From a virus (taxonomy: Duplodnaviria > Heunggongvirae > Uroviricota > Caudoviricetes): 18,710 bases of DNA. The notes beneath the pieces are model-generated. The model searched no databases. It was not told the origin of the DNA and worked only from the letters and a program-made list of their open reading frames with translations. This document shows positions 670 to 10,071 of the stretch, in pieces. Every line of letters begins with the position of its first letter. Position 1 is the stretch's first letter. The position numbers and the translations under genes are program-made. The stretch lies in the IMG/VR virus record IMGVR_UViG_2541047722_000004, one strand, 5' to 3'.

Positions 670-703
670 TATAATCATAATGTTGCAGCAAGGTGGTTAT
701 AAT
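670..703 (+). promoter_or_regulatory. Possible sigma70 -10 elements (TATAAT at 670-675 and 698-703) upstream of trkG
   Basis: Two exact TATAAT hexamers in the AT-rich intergenic region before the trkG ATG at 721. No convincing -35 at canonical spacing; weak call by eye. Confidence 0.25.
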
Positions 704-720
704 TGAAAGAATATTTAGAT

Positions 721-2178
721 ATGAATACATCTCATGTAAGAGTTGTTACTCATATGTGTGGGTTCCTGGTTTGGCTCTATAGTCTTTCAATGTTGCCACC
801 AATGGTTGTAGCATTGTTTTATAAAGAAAAAAGCCTGTTCGTTTTCTTTATAACTTTCGTTATATTTTTTTGCATTGGTGGCGGAGCGTGGTATACAACT
901 AAGAAATCTGGTATTCAATTACGTACCCGTGATGGGTTTATTATAATTGTAATGTTTTGGATTTTGTTTTCTGTTATTAGTGCATTCCCTTTATGGATTG
1001 ACTCAGAACTTAATTTAACGTTTATTGATGCTCTATTTGAAGGGGTTTCTGGAATAACAACAACAGGAGCAACTGTAATTGATGATGTTAGTTCATTACC
1101 TCGGGCATATTTGTACTATCGGTCACAGTTAAATTTTATAGGTGGCTTAGGAGTTATTGTTCTGGCGGTTGCTGTATTGCCATTATTGGGTATTGGTGGT
1201 GCAAAGCTTTATCAGTCAGAAATGCCAGGGCCATTTAAGGATGACAAACTTACTCCCCGCCTGGCCGATACGTCACGGACACTTTGGATAACTTATTCTT
1301 TATTAGGTATTGCTTGTATTGTCTGTTATAGACTTGCAGGAATGCCTTTGTTTGATGCTATTTGTCACGGGATATCCACAGTTTCGCTTGGTGGTTTCTC
1401 AACTCATAGCGAGAGTATCGGATATTTTAATAACTATTTGGTTGAGCTGGTGGCTGGTTCTTTTTCCCTGCTATCGGCTTTCAACTTCACCCTTTGGTAT
1501 ATTGTTATTAGCAGGAAAACGTTAAAACCTTTAATCAGAGATATTGAACTTCGTTTCTTTCTGTTAATAGCCTTAGGGGTGATCATTGTTACCTCTTTCC
1601 AGGTCTGGCATATAGGTATGTATGACTTGCCTGGAAGTTTTATTCATTCGTTTTTTCTTGCCAGCTCCATGCTCACTGATAATGGTTTAGCTACGCAGGA
1701 TTACGCAAACTGGCCCACGCACACGATAGTGTTTTTGCTGTTGTCAAGTTTCTTTGGGGGATGTATAGGTTCAACTTGTGGTGGAATTAAGTCACTTCGA
1801 TTTCTTATACTTTTCAAACAAAGCAAACACGAGATAAACCAGCTTTCTCATCCCAGAGCGTTGTTGAGTGTAAATGTAGGAGGGAAGATAGTTACAGATC
1901 GTGTAATGAGGTCTGTATGGAGTTTCTTTTTTCTTTATACTCTCTTCACGGTGTTTTTTATACTGGTGTTAAATGGTATGGGATATGATTTTCTTACATC
2001 ATTTGCAACAGTGGCTGCATGTATTAATAATATGGGATTAGGTTTTGGGGCTACTGCATCGTCATTCGGAGTGCTTAATGACATTGCAAAATATTTAATG
2101 TGCATAGCTATGATTCTTGGTCGCCTTGAAATTTATCCTGTTATTATATTGTTTTCAGGTTTTTTTTGGCGCTCCTAA
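721..2178 (+). CDS. trkG: TrkG, TrkH-family K+ uptake membrane protein (prophage moron)
   Basis: 485 aa from ATG 721 (the track ORF opens at TTG 703). Multi-pass hydrophobic protein with TrkH/KtrB-type pore-loop glycines (e.g. GITTTGATV, VSLGGFS, NNMGLGFG). Sequence and position after Rz/Rz1 match E. coli Rac prophage trkG as I recall it. Visibly more AT-rich than flanking phage genes. Confidence 0.9.
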   Translation: MNTSHVRVVTHMCGFLVWLYSLSMLPPMVVALFYKEKSLFVFFITFVIFFCIGGGAWYTTKKSGIQLRTRDGFIIIVMFWILFSVISAFPLWIDSELNLTFIDALFEGVSGITTTGATVIDDVSSLPRAYLYYRSQLNFIGGLGVIVLAVAVLPLLGIGGAKLYQSEMPGPFKDDKLTPRLADTSRTLWITYSLLGIACIVCYRLAGMPLFDAICHGISTVSLGGFSTHSESIGYFNNYLVELVAGSFSLLSAFNFTLWYIVISRKTLKPLIRDIELRFFLLIALGVIIVTSFQVWHIGMYDLPGSFIHSFFLASSMLTDNGLATQDYANWPTHTIVFLLLSSFFGGCIGSTCGGIKSLRFLILFKQSKHEINQLSHPRALLSVNVGGKIVTDRVMRSVWSFFFLYTLFTVFFILVLNGMGYDFLTSFATVAACINNMGLGFGATASSFGVLNDIAKYLMCIAMILGRLEIYPVIILFSGFFWRS

Positions 2179-2315: not shown

Positions 2316-3107
2316 ATGAGCGAGAAATTGAAGATCGTCTATCGCCCTTTACAAGAACTGTCTCCGTATGCACACAACGCCAGGACACACAGCCCTGAGC
2401 AGGTGGCACAACTGGTAGAAAGCATTAAGCAATTCGGCTGGACTAATCCGGTGCTGATTGATGAAAAGGGCGAAATTATTGCTGGTCACGGTCGCGTTAT
2501 GGCGGCTGAAGTGCTCAAAATGGATTCCATTCCGGTCATCGTTCTGTCTGGTTTGATGGATGATCAGAAAAAGGCGTACCGCCTGGCAGATAATCGCCTG
2601 CCGCTGAACGCTGGCTGGGATGAAGAACTGTTGCGGATGGAGCTGTCGGAGCTAATCAATGCTGATTTTGATATCTCCCTGACAGGATTCAGCCCGACAG
2701 AAATTGATGAACTGTTGACGGATGTTTTGCCAGGTACAGGAAATGAGGAGGAGCCGTACACGACGAAAATTGATACGCCTGTTTATGAGCCGTCGGGCGA
2801 TAAACCGGACATCAGTGAGCTGTACGACGATACGAAAACTCAGGAGCTGATCAGCCGGATACGTTCGGCGTCCCTTGAGCCCGATATCGAAAAATTCCTC
2901 CTGTGCGCGGCAGAACGCCACACGGTGTTTAATTTCAGCAGAATTGCGGACTATTACGCTCACGCCCCCGCTGAAATTCAGTGTTTTTTCGAGGAGTCGG
3001 CGCTGGTGATCATTGATTATCAGCAGGCTATTGAAAATGGATTTGTCCGGATGACGCAGCGCATGGTGGAGATCATGCATGGTGGTGAGGAGGAGGAATA
3101 TGCGTGA
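2316..3107 (+). CDS. ParB-like nuclease (ParB/Srx N-terminal domain) protein with an uncharacterised C-terminal domain
   Basis: 263 aa. N-terminal region (YRPLQELSPYAHNARTHSPEQVAQLVESIKQFGWTNPVLIDEKGEIIAGHGRVMAA) has the ParB/Srx motif pattern. The short K-12 Rac ORF ynaK next to trkG appears, from memory, to be an N-terminal fragment of this type of gene. Stop overlaps the next gene. Confidence 0.75.
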   Translation: MSEKLKIVYRPLQELSPYAHNARTHSPEQVAQLVESIKQFGWTNPVLIDEKGEIIAGHGRVMAAEVLKMDSIPVIVLSGLMDDQKKAYRLADNRLPLNAGWDEELLRMELSELINADFDISLTGFSPTEIDELLTDVLPGTGNEEEPYTTKIDTPVYEPSGDKPDISELYDDTKTQELISRIRSASLEPDIEKFLLCAAERHTVFNFSRIADYYAHAPAEIQCFFEESALVIIDYQQAIENGFVRMTQRMVEIMHGGEEEEYA

Positions 3108-4032
3108 TGATTTTTGCGCCTTTATTCTGACTCACGGGCGACCGGACAAAGTTCTGACTTACCGGACGTTGCGTCGTGCTGGCTATACCGGGAAAATTTT
3201 TATCGTTGTTGATGATGAAGATAAGACACGGCATCAGTACATGGCTGAATTTGGTGAACAGGTGCTGGTGTTTTCCAAAGCCGATATCGCCAGTCGTTTT
3301 GACGAAGCCGATAATTTCGGTGACCGCCGCTCAATTTTTTACGCCCGTAATGCCTGTTTCGACCTGGCAAAACTGGTCGGGTGTAAATACTTCATTCAGC
3401 TCGATGATGATTATCACGAGTTCCAGTTTCGGGTGGATCGCAACTATGACCAGGCCTATTTTCCGATAAGGAAACTGGATGCGATCCTTTCTGAAATGCT
3501 GGCGTACTACGAATCAATACCTGCTCTTTCCATCGCTATGTCGCAGGGCGGGGATTTTCTTGGTGACAATGGCGGCCATGCTTCGTGGGTGAAACGCAAG
3601 GCAATGAACAGCTTTATCTGTTCGGTTGATCGACCGTTCTCATTCATGGGGCGCATTAACGAGGATGTGAATACGTACACGAATCTCGGTCGCTGTGGTG
3701 AATTGTTTATGACGATCGGTGCTGTCCAGTTAGGGCAGAAACAGACGCAGAAAAACAGCGGCGGAATGACCGAGCTGTATCTGGATTCCGGAACCTACGT
3801 TAAAAGTTTTTACTCCGTCATGTATGCGCCGTCGTGCGTAAAAATCTCACTGATGGGTGCCAGCCATAAACGCATTCACCATCAGGTCACTTGGAACAAC
3901 GCTGCAGTAAAAATCCTTCACGAAAAATACAGGAAGAAGACACCCTGCATATCAATAGGGGTGACAAATGATTCCATATTCGAAAGTCGAGTCTCTGGCA
4001 GCGTGCCGGATGACTGCACAACAAATCGCTGA
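3100..4032 (+). CDS. Hypothetical protein, possible GT-A-fold nucleotide-sugar transferase (DxD motif)
   Basis: ATG at 3100 preceded by strong SD GAGGAGGAGG (3087-3096); the track ORF opens at 3079. Overlaps the ParB-like gene stop by 8 nt. Motifs resemble GT-A/GT2 enzymes: FILTHGRPDKV (first strand plus loop), IFIVVDDEDK, and FIQLDDDYHEF (DxD). Fold assignment is by motif resemblance only. Confidence 0.55.
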   Translation: MRDDFCAFILTHGRPDKVLTYRTLRRAGYTGKIFIVVDDEDKTRHQYMAEFGEQVLVFSKADIASRFDEADNFGDRRSIFYARNACFDLAKLVGCKYFIQLDDDYHEFQFRVDRNYDQAYFPIRKLDAILSEMLAYYESIPALSIAMSQGGDFLGDNGGHASWVKRKAMNSFICSVDRPFSFMGRINEDVNTYTNLGRCGELFMTIGAVQLGQKQTQKNSGGMTELYLDSGTYVKSFYSVMYAPSCVKISLMGASHKRIHHQVTWNNAAVKILHEKYRKKTPCISIGVTNDSIFESRVSGSVPDDCTTNR

Positions 4033-4219
4033 CGTTCTGGATGTTGATCTGAACCGACTGAAAGAAAATCGGGAAGCAATGACAGATTTTTATGCGGCCA
4101 TCCGTAAGGGCAGAGCGAAAGGTGAAGCCGAGTTACGAGCGGCATTGTTTAAGCTTGCCAGAAAAGGGGATGCCTTTGCTCTGCGCGAACTACTCAGGGT
4201 GGATAAAAATCAGGACTAA
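3968..4219 (+). CDS. Small hypothetical protein, possibly HTH DNA-binding (packaging-associated)
   Basis: 83 aa from ATG 3968 (SD-like GGGGTG 6 nt upstream); overlaps the 3-prime end of the preceding gene by 65 nt in another frame. An alternative start at ATG 4010 gives 69 aa. Helix-rich, basic (AQQIADVLDVDLNRLKENREAMTDFYAAIRKGRAKGEAELRAALFKLARKG). Ends 3 nt before terS. Confidence 0.45.
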   Translation: MIPYSKVESLAACRMTAQQIADVLDVDLNRLKENREAMTDFYAAIRKGRAKGEAELRAALFKLARKGDAFALRELLRVDKNQD

Positions 4220-4222
4220 CTG

Positions 4223-5317
4223 ATGAGCAGACCGGACTGGGGGGCGTTGCAGCAGGAGTATATTGCTGAATACACCCGCTCCGGTATATCTCCGGTGGCA
4301 TGGTGTGAAGCAAGGGGACTGAATTACGCAACAGCCCGTCGTTACATCAAAAAACCTCCGAAAAATGCGCAGACAGAAATGCGCAAAACTGCGCAAAAAA
4401 GTGCGCAGAAAAAATCTGCGCAGACTGCACAAAAGCGGAACGAAAAATCTCAGGAAAAAAAGCCAGTATTCGATGCGGGCCTGAATGAGGGCGACGCGGA
4501 GGAATTTTCGTTCTGTCCCGATGAATTCGGCATTTCTGACCAGCAGGCTAAGTTTGCGATGCTTGTTGCTCAGGGGAAAAAGCCGACAGAGGCGTACCGA
4601 CTAGCCGGTTATGAGGGGCAAGGTGCGACAGCTAACAGCAACGCCAGTCGTATGCTTAGAAATGCCAGGGTTTTTCGCGCTATCAGCTACTTCCGCAATC
4701 AGTACCAGAAACGCTATACCGCAGACCTGGATTTACTGGTGAGTCAGTTGATGGCCATTGTCCTGGCCGACCCCAATCAGCTTGCACAATTTCGCCGTGT
4801 TAACTGCCGTTATTGCTGGGGCGAGAATCATCTCTACCAGTGGCGCGATATAGCAGAATTCGACAAGGCAGCGGCGCAGGCTTCCAGAGATGGCAAACCC
4901 GAACCGGAATATGGAGGCCTCGGCTTTGTTGATAACGCCATACCCAATCCGGACTGCCCGAAGTGCTGCGGTGAGGGAACGGGACAGCTTTATATGGCTG
5001 ATACCACTCTGCTTGATGGGGATGCGCGGCAATTATATGCAGGGGCAAAACTCGGAAAATTCGGCGTTGAGATCCTGCTGGAGGATAAGGCTGCCGCCCG
5101 GCGTGAATTGTTGCGTTTGCTTTCTGCTGGCGGGGCTTTATGTGCAGATAAGCGGCTACAGGAACTGGAAATTGAACGACGCAGAATGGAAAACCAGAAG
5201 CTGCGCAAAGAGATCGAAACGGTGGAAGATAATGAACATCCCCAGCCTGTGGCGATCAATATTAATGTGGTTGATGCCAGAGTAAGGAGTGATGAAGATG
5301 ATCTCTCCGACGCTTAA
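4223..5317 (+). CDS. Terminase small subunit (Terminase_2-like core with N-terminal HTH, K/A/Q-rich linker and Cys4 motif)
   Basis: 364 aa. Core motif ISDQQAKFAMLVAQGKKPTEAYRLAGYEGQGATANSNASRMLRNARVFRAI matches the pattern of phage small terminase subunits. Sits immediately upstream of the large terminase gene and overlaps its start. Confidence 0.8.
   Translation: MSRPDWGALQQEYIAEYTRSGISPVAWCEARGLNYATARRYIKKPPKNAQTEMRKTAQKSAQKKSAQTAQKRNEKSQEKKPVFDAGLNEGDAEEFSFCPDEFGISDQQAKFAMLVAQGKKPTEAYRLAGYEGQGATANSNASRMLRNARVFRAISYFRNQYQKRYTADLDLLVSQLMAIVLADPNQLAQFRRVNCRYCWGENHLYQWRDIAEFDKAAAQASRDGKPEPEYGGLGFVDNAIPNPDCPKCCGEGTGQLYMADTTLLDGDARQLYAGAKLGKFGVEILLEDKAAARRELLRLLSAGGALCADKRLQELEIERRRMENQKLRKEIETVEDNEHPQPVAININVVDARVRSDEDDLSDA
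4366..4431. repeat. Array of five perfect TGCGCA palindromic hexamers plus one degenerate copy (TGCACA), spaced 10-15 bp with A-rich spacers
   Basis: TGCGCA at 4366, 4380, 4390, 4402, 4417 and TGCACA at 4426. Encodes the N-A-Q / M-R-K / T-A-Q / S-A-Q linker of TerS; the copy at 4380 is in a different codon phase from the others. Confidence 0.6.
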
Positions 5318-6599
5318 TGTGCCTCAGGCGCGATTTCTTTCAATGCCCCATAAATTTAAAGCCTATATTGCTGGTTTTGGCTCGGGCAAAACATGGGTTG
5401 GGTGTGGCGGCATATGCAAGGGGATTTGGGAGCATCCAGGTATAAATCAGGGATATTTTGCGCCAACGTATCCCCAAATTCGCGATATTTTTTACCCTAC
5501 AGTGGAAGAAGTTGCTGCTGACTGGGGATTGAACGTAAAAATTAATGAGGGAAATAAAGAGGTTCACTTTTATTACGGACGCCAGTATCGGGGAACCACT
5601 ATCTGCAGATCGATGGAGAAGCCACAAACGATCGTCGGTTTCAAAATTGGTAATGCGCTGGTGGATGAACTGGACATTTTGCCGAAGGAAAAAGCCAGAA
5701 CGGCGTGGCGCAAGATAATTGCGCGTATGCGTTATAAGATTGATGGACTTCGCAACGGTATTGACGTTACAACCACGCCGGAAGGATTCAAATTTGTCTA
5801 CGAGCAGTTTGTTAAAGCCGTGCGTGAAAAAACAGAGCTGGCCTCACTGTATGGTCTGGTGCAGGCATCTACTTTCGATAATGAAAAGAACCTGCCAGCA
5901 GATTACATTCCTTCGCTTCTTGAATCATACCCTCCAGAGCTGATTAAAGCCTATCTTCGAGGACAGTTTACTAACCTGACAAGTGGTACTGTTTACCATC
6001 AGTTTGACCGGAAACTGAATAATTGCGAAGAAGTGGAGCAGCCAGGGGAGCCGATTTATATTGGGATGGATTTTAACGTTGGAAAGATGGCGGGGATCGT
6101 CCATGTGCTGCGTTTGGGGCTTCCATGTGCGGTAACTGAAATCATCAATGCCTACGATACGCCGGATATGATCCGCATCATTAAAGAACGCTTCTGGCTG
6201 TATGACGGGAATGATTACCGGAAAGTGAGGGAGATTTATATTTATCCAGATGCTTCCGGAGATTCCAGAAAATCAAGTAACGCAAGTACGACGGATATAG
6301 CCCAGCTTAAGCAGGCTGGTTTTAACGTTGTGGTGAACAGCTCGAACCCGCCAGTAAAAGATCGCGTTAACTCAATGAATGCAATGTTCTGCAATGCCAA
6401 TGGTGAGCGTCGCTATAAAGTTAATGTGAAGCGTTGTCCGGTATATGCCGAATCTCTGGAGCAACAGGTCTGGGATGATAAGGGGGAGCCTGATAAAAAA
6501 TCTGGCAATGATCACCCGAATGATGCCGGAGGTTATTTCATCGTTAAGCAATTCCCTATTGTCAAACCGACCGGAAGAGTCACATCACTTCGGATTTAA
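5298..6599 (+). CDS. Terminase large subunit
   Basis: Walker A motif (AGFGSGKT) near the N-terminus, then an ATPase region and C-terminal nuclease-like region. SD AAGGAG at 5284-5289 favours ATG 5298; GTG 5289 and ATG 5292 are alternative starts (the track ORF starts at 5289). Confidence 0.9.
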   Translation: MISPTLNVPQARFLSMPHKFKAYIAGFGSGKTWVGCGGICKGIWEHPGINQGYFAPTYPQIRDIFYPTVEEVAADWGLNVKINEGNKEVHFYYGRQYRGTTICRSMEKPQTIVGFKIGNALVDELDILPKEKARTAWRKIIARMRYKIDGLRNGIDVTTTPEGFKFVYEQFVKAVREKTELASLYGLVQASTFDNEKNLPADYIPSLLESYPPELIKAYLRGQFTNLTSGTVYHQFDRKLNNCEEVEQPGEPIYIGMDFNVGKMAGIVHVLRLGLPCAVTEIINAYDTPDMIRIIKERFWLYDGNDYRKVREIYIYPDASGDSRKSSNASTTDIAQLKQAGFNVVVNSSNPPVKDRVNSMNAMFCNANGERRYKVNVKRCPVYAESLEQQVWDDKGEPDKKSGNDHPNDAGGYFIVKQFPIVKPTGRVTSLRI

Positions 6600-6601
6600 T
6601 T

Positions 6602-8008
6602 ATGGCTGATATATCAACACCCAACCTCGACTATAACGATATGCTGGAGGCGTGGGATATTAACGACGCATTGATGGGCGGTACGCTTGAAATGCGCAGG
6701 CAGGGGGAAAATTATCTCCCCAAATGGCCTAATGAAGATGAAGACGCTTATAAAAAACGCCTGTCTGTGGCTACGCTACTTCCTGTGTATGAAGAAAGCA
6801 TCAAACAAAATATTGGGCGCATATTTGCAGAGCCGACAGTATTGAGTGAGGAAACGCCGGAAAAAATCAGGGAATATGCAGAAAATATCGACATGGAGGG
6901 GAGCCGACTGGATGTGTGGGCGCAGCAATTTTTCAGTCTCGCATTTCAGTATGGTGTGGCACATGCGCTGGTGGACTATCCACGAACGGATATGAAAGAG
7001 ATTCGGACAAAAGCCGATGAAAACGCGGCCGGTGGTCGCCCGTACGTTACGATGCTGAATCCACGCCAGGTTATTGGATGGAAATCGAAAGTTGAAAAAG
7101 GGAAAGTTGTTCTCACTGATTTGCGTATAAAAGAGGTCATCATTATTGATGGTGATGATTTCGGGCAGAAGAAGGTGGAGCAGATCCGCCATATTATGCC
7201 CCGTCGAGTTGAAATTTATCGACGCAGCGAAGGTACTAATGGCGAATCTGTCTGGACGCTTCATGAGTCATGGAATACCAGCCGTGATGATATTCCTCTG
7301 GTAACACTGTATACGAAGAAAACAGGGTTTATGCGTGGTACACCGCCATTGCTTAATCTTGGCTTGCTGAATATCAAGCACTGGCAAAGCCAGAGCGAGC
7401 AGGACAATATTCTTCATGTTGCCCGCGTTCCATTGCTGGTGGCCTACGGGCTGGACAGGAATGAAGAACTGACGGTTGGTGCATCCACCGCTACGATTTT
7501 TGAGGACAGAACAAAAAATGGCCTCGAATATGTTGAACATAGTGGCGCAGCGATAGAATCTGGCGAAACATCACTTGAGAAGCTGGAAAATCAGATGCGT
7601 CATGCCGGCGCTAAACTTCTGCGGGCTGAAAATACATCCACCAAATCTGTTGATCAGACTAATGAAGAGCGGATGCAGGAACACTCGCCGCTTTATACAA
7701 TGGCGAACTCCCTCGAAGATGCCCTCGATAATATTCTCCAGATAATGGCGGAATGGAGCGGAGAGAGTTGCGGTGGCAATGTGGATGTGCGCACTGAACT
7801 GGATGTATCTGCCCAGGTGTTTGACTCATCCTCCGCGCTGGCTGTTCAGTCATTGCGTCAGGGCGGTGATATACGTCAGATTGATGCGGTTCGGGTGTTG
7901 CAGGCGTTGAAATTTATCGATCAGGATTCCCGTCCAGAGGAAGTGATCGATGAATTAAAAAATCAGAGTGTAATGCTGATGGAAATCAATGATGCAAACC
8001 GTGAATGA
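6602..8008 (+). CDS. Portal protein
   Basis: 468 aa ORF starting 2 nt after the terminase stop, in the canonical position after TerL; size and composition consistent with SPP1-type portal proteins. Confidence 0.8.
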   Translation: MADISTPNLDYNDMLEAWDINDALMGGTLEMRRQGENYLPKWPNEDEDAYKKRLSVATLLPVYEESIKQNIGRIFAEPTVLSEETPEKIREYAENIDMEGSRLDVWAQQFFSLAFQYGVAHALVDYPRTDMKEIRTKADENAAGGRPYVTMLNPRQVIGWKSKVEKGKVVLTDLRIKEVIIIDGDDFGQKKVEQIRHIMPRRVEIYRRSEGTNGESVWTLHESWNTSRDDIPLVTLYTKKTGFMRGTPPLLNLGLLNIKHWQSQSEQDNILHVARVPLLVAYGLDRNEELTVGASTATIFEDRTKNGLEYVEHSGAAIESGETSLEKLENQMRHAGAKLLRAENTSTKSVDQTNEERMQEHSPLYTMANSLEDALDNILQIMAEWSGESCGGNVDVRTELDVSAQVFDSSSALAVQSLRQGGDIRQIDAVRVLQALKFIDQDSRPEEVIDELKNQSVMLMEINDANRE

Positions 8009-9104
8009 ACGGCTGCGTGATGAATCAATTGCTCATGCAGTCTGGATATCCCGCTATAGCACTGGTGTGGCTGCCAGAATAGTGAAAATACTGAATGACA
8101 GCGATGCGGAGCTTACAGCTCGCCTGCTGGTAGCACTGGACAGCCTCGATCCTAGTAGTTTTACCGTTACGCGCCTGGAGTCACTTCTGGCGAGTGTCAG
8201 AGAGGTTAACCGCACTGCTATTAACAGCATGTTTACCAGTCTCTCCGGAGAGCTGAACGAGCTGGCAATTTATGAGGTTGGTTATCAGTTAAGTCTGTTT
8301 GATTCTCTGCTACCTGATTTTGTTGCTGATGTTCACCCTCTGGTTGGTATCTCTTCTGATGCACTTTACGCCGCTGCAATGGCGCGACCATTCCAGGGAC
8401 GACTGCTCAGTGAGTGGGCCTCAGATCTTGAGGCGGATCGGCTCAGACGCATAACAAATACGGTGCGTCAGGGTTTTTTGCTGGGGGATACCAATGAGCA
8501 GATCGCAAGAAAAATTCGGGGACATGTCAGTAAGGGATTTCAGGATGGTGCATTGCAGATGAGCCGGGCTAATGCGGCCAGCATTGCAAAAACAGCGGTT
8601 GGACATCTTGCTGCTACTGCTCGTGAGAGTTTTGCACGCGCGAATAATGATTTGATTAAGGGTAAGCAATGGTTATCAACGCTTGATAATCGTACTACGC
8701 CACAATGTCGAATCAGGGATCGCCTCAAATATACGCTGGATAATAAACCTGTAGGTCACAGCGTGCCTTATTTGCAGGGGCCGGGAAAAATTCATTTCTG
8801 CTGCCGCTCAACGGAAACGTTCATTCTGAAATCAGCGAAGGAACTGGGTATTGATGTTCGTGATATTTCCCCGGCTGAGCGGGCCAGCATGGATGGCGTG
8901 GTGGCCGGAGATACAACCTACAGGGAATGGTTTTTGCGTCAGCCTTACACCAGACAAAAACAGATTGTGGGGGAAACCCGGGCAAAGCTGATTCGGGATG
9001 GTGGTATGTCGCCAGATGAATTTTACACCGATAAAGGCGAATGGCTGACGCTGAAGCAACTCCGTGAGCGTGATGCACAGGTATTCAGAAAAGCAGGGAT
9101 TTAA
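7989..9104 (+). CDS. Head morphogenesis / minor head protein (SPP1 gp7 / Mu F-like)
   Basis: 371 aa ORF overlapping the portal stop by 20 nt, canonical position after portal; alternative ATG at 7992. Confidence 0.7.
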   Translation: MMQTVNERLRDESIAHAVWISRYSTGVAARIVKILNDSDAELTARLLVALDSLDPSSFTVTRLESLLASVREVNRTAINSMFTSLSGELNELAIYEVGYQLSLFDSLLPDFVADVHPLVGISSDALYAAAMARPFQGRLLSEWASDLEADRLRRITNTVRQGFLLGDTNEQIARKIRGHVSKGFQDGALQMSRANAASIAKTAVGHLAATARESFARANNDLIKGKQWLSTLDNRTTPQCRIRDRLKYTLDNKPVGHSVPYLQGPGKIHFCCRSTETFILKSAKELGIDVRDISPAERASMDGVVAGDTTYREWFLRQPYTRQKQIVGETRAKLIRDGGMSPDEFYTDKGEWLTLKQLRERDAQVFRKAGI

Positions 9105-9973: not shown

Positions 9974-10071
9974 TACATTTGCCAGCTTCCGGATGGGAGT
10001 TGGTGTCAGGGCTGGATAGCTCACTACTCAATCCATTCACAATTACGCAAATTTTTAAGGAATATTTAATT

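Follow-up and report, generated by a model that had tools for sequence, protein, structure and literature searches.

In phage lambda, several short sites (R3-R2-R1) for the helix-turn-helix (HTH) of the small terminase subunit (TerS), there the winged HTH of gpNu1, make up cosB together with a bend due to IHF, beside the terminase genes, while the repeat of the packaging recognition (pac) site of phage P1 reads TGATCA/G. The P1 site holds seven hexanucleotide repeats (PMC11260489), and the known pac sites of phages P22 and SPP1 are located in or at the small terminase gene, terS (PMC9611059, PMC4737164). According to reviews, binding of TerS to pac is weak and non-specific in vitro and its specificity lacks an explanatory model (PMC9611059, PMC4737164). 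Here, we have analysed an array of TGCGCA hexamers inside the terS gene of a Rac-like prophage. The window, that is, the whole stretch of 18,710 nucleotides (IMG/VR record IMGVR_UViG_2541047722_000004), corresponds to this prophage, and the region tested matches E. coli 042 with 100% identity. The hexamers are under selection at the DNA level, are exclusively linked to the N-terminal domain of TerS and covary with helix 3 of this domain. Judging from the sequences, the array is a likely binding site of the N-terminal HTH and, on balance, the pac recognition element of this phage family, read by the same HTH.

The array resembles each of these described systems in some respect. As in P1, where the repeats are part of pacA, several copies of a palindromic hexamer lie within the gene of the terminase recognition subunit, and the likeness to P1 extends to relatives of the 933W type, which use YGATCAT repeats containing GATC. 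With SPP1 and SF6 (G1P), the window shares the TerS core family (Terminase_2) and the position of the repeats, the direct repeats boxA/B/C in those phages, at the 5′ end of terS; the idea of ring-displayed HTHs contacting repeated elements applies to both (PMC4737164). The P22 recognition site also lies in the coding sequence of terS (gene 3), where it is wobble-constrained (PMC9611059, PMC11260489). As for lambda cosB, multiple short TerS-HTH sites are predicted to adjoin the terminase genes of the window. Regarding the analogies drawn in an earlier note on this DNA, which had proposed the array as a candidate packaging site, those to cosB and P22 proved to be loose, and sites built of repeated elements, such as P1 pac, are nearer.

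TerS of the window consists of three parts, a 45-residue N-terminal domain, a linker rich in Lys, Ala and Gln, and a Terminase_2 core, and the hexamers fall within the linker codons:

4223..5317, plus strand: terS, small terminase subunit of 364 aa (open reading frame (ORF), translation, Pfam Terminase_2, phrog_51)
4223..4357, plus strand: N-terminal domain of TerS (45 aa, three helices, HTH-like), proposed as the repeat reader (AlphaFold2, Foldseek, PHROGs)
4325..4351, plus strand: codons of residues 35-43 (YATARRYIK), the putative recognition helix, with Arg at residue 39 encoded at 4337-4339 (covariation)
4349..4461, plus strand: A-tract-rich linker-coding DNA with the hexamer array (runs of at least four A from 4349, 4361, 4385, 4395, 4409, 4431, 4443 and 4455)
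4366..4371, no strand: TGCGCA hexamer 1 (aaT GCG CAg, N-A-Q)
4380..4385, no strand: TGCGCA hexamer 2, read in another codon phase (aTG CGC Aaa, M-R-K)
4390..4395, no strand: TGCGCA hexamer 3 (acT GCG CAa, T-A-Q)
4402..4407, no strand: TGCGCA hexamer 4 (agT GCG CAg, S-A-Q), TGCGCG in some E. coli/Shigella alleles
4417..4422, no strand: TGCGCA hexamer 5 (tcT GCG CAg, S-A-Q)
4426..4431, no strand: TGCACA, a sixth copy with one mismatch (acT GCA CAa, T-A-Q), perfect TGCGCA in the E. coli/Shigella alleles JNU, MLI108K3 and L008
4586..5185, plus strand: Terminase_2 core of TerS, comprising an HTH of its own and the oligomerisation region; it can be separated from the cassette that precedes it (Pfam, mosaic boundaries)

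The array starts 143 nt into the ORF and covers residues 48-70 of the linker, and the genes for the large terminase (terL), the portal and a Mu-F-like protein lie 3′ of terS, so that its location inside terS is that of a pac site. Exact positions bore out the description in the earlier note, namely five TGCGCA and one TGCACA between 4366 and 4431, in two codon phases ((N/T/S)-A-Q at 4366, 4390, 4402, 4417 and 4426, and M-R-K at 4380) and separated by A-rich spacers (51 A per 106 nt). The helical-turn spacing claimed there holds as an approximation, but strict phasing is unsupported, since start-to-start distances are 14, 10, 12, 15 and 9 in the window and the modes across the family are 7, 9, 12, 14 and 16. 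The A runs of the linker recur with a periodicity of ~12 bp and may have a role in DNA bending. Five of the 12 TGCGCA copies of the 18.7-kb window are packed into 57 bp, and in Markov-1 simulations of the window clusters of at least five appeared in none of 300 runs, the largest having three. When up to one mismatch was allowed, no second hexamer cluster was found in the window. A lone TGCGCA is present at 5202-5207 (aaG CTG CGC Aaa, K-L-R-K), close to the terS 3′ end and ~90 bp 5′ of the terL start, and is retained at the same position in Rac-SA53, pPE4 and the Shigella and E. ruysiae alleles.

Homologues were collected by scanning one genome per species with the N-terminal domain, which gave 80 loci from Enterobacterales, Vibrio and Aeromonas. 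Loci were gathered as DNA; a protein search with the 45-residue domain returned only short, frameshift-truncated ORFs. The constraint counts that follow refer to 70 unique loci from more than 30 genera in which helix 3 reads ARR[YH]IK, the linker being defined as nt 126-300 of the coding sequence. TGCGCA was found 350 times in these linkers (28.6/kb) versus 0.58/kb in the other ~5 kb per locus. Linker copies were distributed over all three codon phases (256 in phase 2, 74 in phase 1 and 22 in phase 0), which encode different peptides (xAQ/xAH, [LMV]R, CA), and those in phase 2 were preceded by twelve different codons for ten amino acids, every one of them ending in T. Ala-Gln/His dipeptides were coded as T-GCG-CA in 256 of 284 cases (90%) within the linker versus 26 of 276 (about 9%) outside terS, and [LMV]-Arg dipeptides, in the phase of the copy at 4380, as xTG-CGC-A in 76 of 81 cases versus 25 of 130 elsewhere in terS. 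In two sets of loci picked by protein anchors only, and thus independently of the motif, the frequency of the major allele at third codon positions was 0.88 and 0.99 within consensus hexamers compared with 0.66-0.72 elsewhere (Mann-Whitney p = 1.8e-4 and 1.2e-5). Among homologues these third positions are near-invariant, in contrast to the spacers, the copy number and the protein around them, which vary. The Klebsiella prophages illustrate the point: their N-terminal part is only ~72% identical in DNA and their core differs in sequence, and there are six TGCGCA at the matching place, in all three phases (TAQ, TAQ, PAQ, L-R-T, TAQ, C-A-E). Finally, a synonymous redraw of the linker, with the peptide fixed and the phage's own codon usage, produced at least five TGCGCA in 9 of 200,000 draws (4.5e-5). 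Because the hexamers occupy three codon phases, bias codon choice to this extent, conserve third positions and are not reproduced by codon resampling, it is as good as certain that they are selected as DNA, independently of the encoded protein.

These data bear directly on the alternative raised in the earlier note, that the array is just the codon repetition of a Lys/Ala/Gln-rich linker, arisen by slippage or duplication of a 12-nt unit, with the hexamer as an accident. The peptide is certainly repetitive, with (K)xAQK units, 73% of the copies share one phase, and a 12-bp indel in one E. coli allele takes out exactly one repeat unit. Nevertheless, a comparison of DNA with protein conservation, synonymous sites included, gave the opposite of freely varying Ala-Gln codons, with third-position conservation confined to the hexamers. 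Moreover, the array persists across genera as spacers diverge, and protein identities of 51-76% exclude recent copies of one sequence. An origin in the peptide or its codons was rejected on the codon resampling, the dipeptide codon test and the third-position conservation, and we consider this explanation extremely improbable.

Constraint on the nucleotide sequence could also be exerted in the RNA, if pairs of UGCGCA formed hairpins in the terS mRNA that tune its translation or stability. The linker RNA of the window is indeed predicted to be unusually stable (-32.3 kcal/mol, z = -4.95 versus shuffles), as is the Klebsiella version (z = -3.4). However, this excess follows automatically from the repetition of a self-complementary hexamer, and it disappears in arrays of TGCGAA in one orientation, such as those of Pmp11 (z = -0.04) and the Yersinia phage (z = -0.29). 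In addition, copy number and spacing change freely, so that no hairpin is conserved. Hairpins were discarded as the function, the z-scores being a by-product of the palindrome, and a role at the RNA level appears very unlikely.

Two further observations concern the linker and the adjoining part of terS. Relatives of the Klebsiella type contain a second TGCGCA trio ~160 bp downstream, at nt ~348-403 of the coding sequence and within the Terminase_2 domain (VAQAIAQ...IVRT, two phases), that is not present in the window, and 42% of the A-[QH] dipeptides of terS beyond residue 100 are coded as T-GCG-CA. The second trio may also be constrained, giving a two-cluster layout like that of P1 or SPP1. 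Besides, many database copies of terS are frameshift-truncated within the linker rich in A runs, for instance at runs of A6-A10 (proteins P0002-P0025; loci L015, L032, L036, L047, L070 and L083); in these copies the peptide is altered and the hexamers persist. Such frameshifts could be homopolymer sequencing errors, signs of decaying prophages or real slippage.

In TerS homologues the array is consistently placed directly behind the 45-residue three-helix domain. AlphaFold2 modelled this domain with a predicted local distance difference test (pLDDT) score of 85 and helices at residues 6-20, 24-31 and 35-38+. Its best Foldseek matches in PDB were nearly all HTH DNA-binding domains (N-terminus of IstA, DeoR, Aca1), and NCBIfam gave a weak match to the HTH of IS66 TnpA; Pfam returned nothing significant for the domain alone. 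The domain is common to the TerS PHROGs 51, 370, 32222, 30708 and 1711. A search of viral contigs with the DNA pattern only (three hexamers with gaps of 3-10 nt) retrieved 81 arrays, 58 of which were no more than 450 nt from a homologue of the domain, and at least one further array (L098) lay behind a more diverged terS HTH. A further contig, IMGVR_UViG_3300022666_000221 (L145), has a non-coding array of 4-5 TGCGCA copies at nt ~10006-10060, near a tyrosine integrase gene and with no terS HTH nearby. This array may be an operator of unrelated function or else mark a satellite-type element with a pac-like site.

The type of repeat in the linker changed with the sequence of helix 3, as follows:

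Helix 3 ARR[YH]IK: TGCGCA is the top linker 6-mer in all (about 120-150 unique loci)
Helix 3 AKRYIK: TGCGAA(T) or the 12-bp palindrome TGCGAATTCGCA, with zero TGCGCA (all 13 unique loci)
Helix 3 ARTRIK (933W and other Shiga toxin (Stx) phages): YGATCAT, 4-5 copies with 12-bp spacing (12 unique DNA variants)
Unrelated HTH_50-like N-terminus (phage pPE4): GTTTCCAC/GTGGAAAC, four copies (1 locus)

In the 11 AKRYIK loci that were counted, TGCGAA or TGCGAATTCGCA reached 28.6/kb in the linker versus 0.6/kb elsewhere. Residue 39 is the sole position among residues 1-43 whose composition is disjoint between the Arg and Lys groups. Lys-types do not form a single deep clade; they interleave with Arg-types, and several are 94-97% identical to an Arg-type over residues 1-33. 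In a Pasteurella phage of only 53% identity, Lys39 likewise occurs together with TGCGAA, of which there are nine copies in two phases, and proteins of the 933W background, with near-identical helices 1-2 but a helix 3 reading ARRYIK, are followed by 5-6 TGCGCA. Altogether, a change of helix 3 came with another repeat type in no fewer than three distinct N-terminal contexts. The pairing of the Arg to Lys change with a change of C:G to A:T at motif position 5 would be chemically reasonable for direct readout. Phage pPE4 has the same TerS core as the window, an unrelated N-terminus and repeats at the same place, which suggests a second, independent cassette of reader plus sites.

Some details of the divergent arrays can be added. 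The linker of phage vB_Apl-pPE4 (PP818812.1) includes, at nt ~1355-1400, GTTTCCAC and GTGGAAA(C), two copies of each, in opposite orientations. In 933W (AF125520.1, L088), at nt ~1335-1390, and likewise in loci L297-L336, the YGATCAT repeats follow at an exact 12-bp spacing just after a distant homologue of the HTH and code for IDHEIDHKTDHEIDH. Each repeat contains a Dam site (GATC), recalling the Dam-regulated pac of P1, and one variant has a fifth unit.

Both linkage and covariation would be misleading if something other than TerS recognised the hexamers, for instance a DNA-binding protein of the host, some other protein of the phage or an enzyme for modification or restriction, and the link to helix 3 were a coincidence of co-inheritance. 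TGCGCA contains GCGC, genes for a ParB-like protein and a TAGT-type glycosyltransferase are found just 5′ in the window, and the covariation events are few and come from related sequences. Against this, array-bearing phages of Klebsiella, Yersinia and Pasteurella are devoid of the ParB/TAGT pair, for which reason a link of the array to these upstream genes was rejected. The repeat type follows helix 3 in the several N-terminal contexts mentioned above and, as the hosts span Aeromonas, Vibrio, Pasteurella and Enterobacterales, one host factor common to all of them whose specificity switches is improbable. Overall, we regard a different factor as quite improbable.

Our preferred reading is that the array is a packaging recognition site encoded by the gene of its own reader, and the pac interpretation gains indirect support from the way in which the repeat type changes together with helix 3 in the N-terminal HTH of TerS. 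TerS would assemble by means of its Terminase_2 core; in the small-terminase protein class, the formation of rings is established. Each subunit would then expose a further HTH of 45 residues on a flexible tether (~55 residues, rich in Lys), and several of these HTHs may bind 4-10 closely spaced hexamers in A-rich DNA, so that specificity would derive from multivalency. TerL would thereby be placed for the first cut of headful packaging. With the sites in the tether codons right behind the reading domain, both would form a cassette of ~250 bp, and reader and target could therefore be inherited and recombined onto different TerS cores as a single unit. Physical binding, oligomeric geometry and the role in packaging initiation are what we infer from these patterns. 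The case is evenly poised for the broader proposal of a portable packaging-specificity cassette, in which the HTH and the tether codons spelling its sites are shuffled among unrelated TerS cores under a helix-3 code (Arg39-TGCGCA, Lys39-TGCGAA, ARTRIK-YGATCAT).

Several points weigh against this reading. Codons 37-39 themselves spell TGCGAA in 7 of the 13 Lys-type loci and, therefore, the R39K correlation could partly be driven by the DNA and not by the protein, although Lys is encoded by non-motif codons in the other 6. One AHRYIKK locus retains TGCGCA, and the counts behind the covariation are not phylogenetically independent events. The Foldseek matches are weak (E > 0.2), the non-significant scores being due to the domain having only 45 residues. 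Hexamers are spaced irregularly, at 7-16 bp, with no phasing to the helix. E. coli alleles hold 4-6 perfect copies, with individual hexamers mutating and turning over, and hence no single copy is essential. Lastly, the Terminase_2 HTH of SF6 and SPP1 is non-specific in vitro (PMC4737164).

Alternatively, the TerS HTH might bind the array for some other purpose, such as autoregulation of terS/terL or the loading of TerS in cis for another step, with the pac cut signal lying elsewhere. Covariation and linkage support binding by TerS and not a particular downstream function, and a protein bound within the coding region could block transcription or translation. On the other hand, the domain is found only fused to small terminases, the recognition of DNA for packaging is a known task of TerS (PMC9611059), and arrays of 4-10 sites inside an ORF would be unusual for an operator. 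Taking both sides together, we hold this possibility to be unlikely.

Taking the array as a pac element, it departs from each of the described systems in specific ways. In comparison with P1, the hexamer of the window lacks GATC, so that control by Dam is not expected; there is a single cluster, and not two flanking the cut site as in a P1-type pac; and TerS combines Terminase_2 with an extra HTH and is not a PacA homologue. As for SPP1 and SF6, their repeats are poorly conserved between both phages and their HTH binds without specificity (PMC4737164), whereas the hexamers described here are kept across genera, vary together with one residue in an additional HTH at the N-terminus, which is absent from SPP1 G1P, and lie entirely in tether-coding sequence. 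The tripartite pacL/pacC/pacR layout of the SPP1 type, across promoters and gene start, was not seen in the window. P22 pac is one asymmetric 22-bp site and not an array of short palindromes, and its gp3 belongs to a different TerS family. Finally, lambda uses cos, where nicking occurs at a defined site; its TerL is of a different family and its sites lie outside the coding sequence. The TerL of the window is Terminase_6N/6C, and the Pfam scan of the window reported no Nu1-type domain.

Boundaries of homology agreed with a modular gene. Window and Klebsiella phages are homologous only at ~4281-4410, and window and pPE4 only at ~4517-5107. Several Terminase_2 subtypes carry the cassette as a fusion, as do cores without a Pfam match, including 933W-like ones, and relatives occur in prophages of Klebsiella, Salmonella, Shigella, Yersinia, Proteus, Pasteurella and Aeromonas as well as in Shiga toxin phages. 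In Rac-SA53, where the N-terminal domain has been deleted by a gpO-terS fusion, the hexamers have decayed to TTCGCA, TGCGCT and TGCCCA.

The literature searched, from one library (TGCGCA with terminase or packaging, 933W pac, E. coli phage records), contained no description of the array or the cassette and no virion-end or transduction record for any family member; a nanopore paper on the gut virome likewise lacked data on this phage. As pac sites in terS (P22, SPP1) and a pac of hexamer repeats (P1) are already known, what appears to be new is the family-wide cassette, with its extra HTH, its sites in the codons of its own tether and its correspondence between helix 3 and motif. For the question of TerS specificity it offers a testable case, with one domain dedicated to reading, a short motif present 4-10 times and natural variants distinguished by a single helix-3 residue. 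If the proposal is true, this would be the first pac system in which sequence-specific readout of DNA by TerS is legible from sequence and reprogrammable by single substitutions, and cross-packaging of phages, satellites or plasmids would become predictable. A known pac signal would help to predict the start points of lateral and generalised transduction and the cross-packaging of satellites, and to design transducing vectors.

The terminase genes are embedded in the following gene order:

703-2178, plus strand: trkG-like gene (gene order)
2316-3107, plus strand: ParB_N protein (gene order)
3079-4032, plus strand: TAGT-type glycosyltransferase (gene order)
3968-4219, plus strand: 83-aa ORF, directly 5′ of terS
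5289..6599, plus strand: terL, large terminase, with probable ATG start at 5292 or 5298 (Pfam, start sequence)
6602-8008: DUF4055 portal (Pfam, gene order)
7989-9104: Mu-F-like gene (gene order)

Downstream of the Mu-F-like gene there are more structural genes, as far as an ORF of 1,077 aa with the size of a tape measure. Residues 122-321 of TerS match Pfam Terminase_2 (E = 2.5e-8; 35.1 bits, above the cutoff of 26.1), which makes TerS a member of this family, and the protein matches phrog_51, 'terminase small subunit' (E = 1.7e-76). The exact terS allele class of the window is present in 891 of 5,426 complete E. coli genomes, and in these 891 the protein is annotated as 'terminase small subunit'. 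TerL matches Pfam Terminase_6N (E = 3.7e-33) and Terminase_6C (E = 5.8e-11), the family of the T4-, P22- and SPP1-type large terminases, and its score against TIGR01547 (PBSX) is under the cutoff of that model. A PDB sequence search with TerS and TerL as queries retrieved no useful relatives.

Some neighbouring genes deserve a comment. The 83-aa ORF resembles the middle of another small-terminase family (phrog_309, positions 145-218 of 319, E = 8e-23) and may be what is left of a terS that was replaced, or else encode a small DNA-binding partner in its own right. Just 5′ of the terminase genes, the ParB_N (YnaK-like) gene overlaps that of the TET-associated glycosyltransferase, which matches Pfam TAGT (E = 6.5e-35) and phrog_842 'beta-glucosyl-HMC-alpha-glucosyltransferase' and is called 'GREB1-related' in one RefSeq genome. 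No TET/JBP or methylase gene is visible in the window; the pair may constitute a DNA-modification module. At the prophage edge, the trkG-like gene encodes a TrkH-family potassium transporter, as in the Rac prophage of E. coli K-12, and downstream of it the window still has the complete packaging and head-tail module, which has been lost from K-12 Rac.

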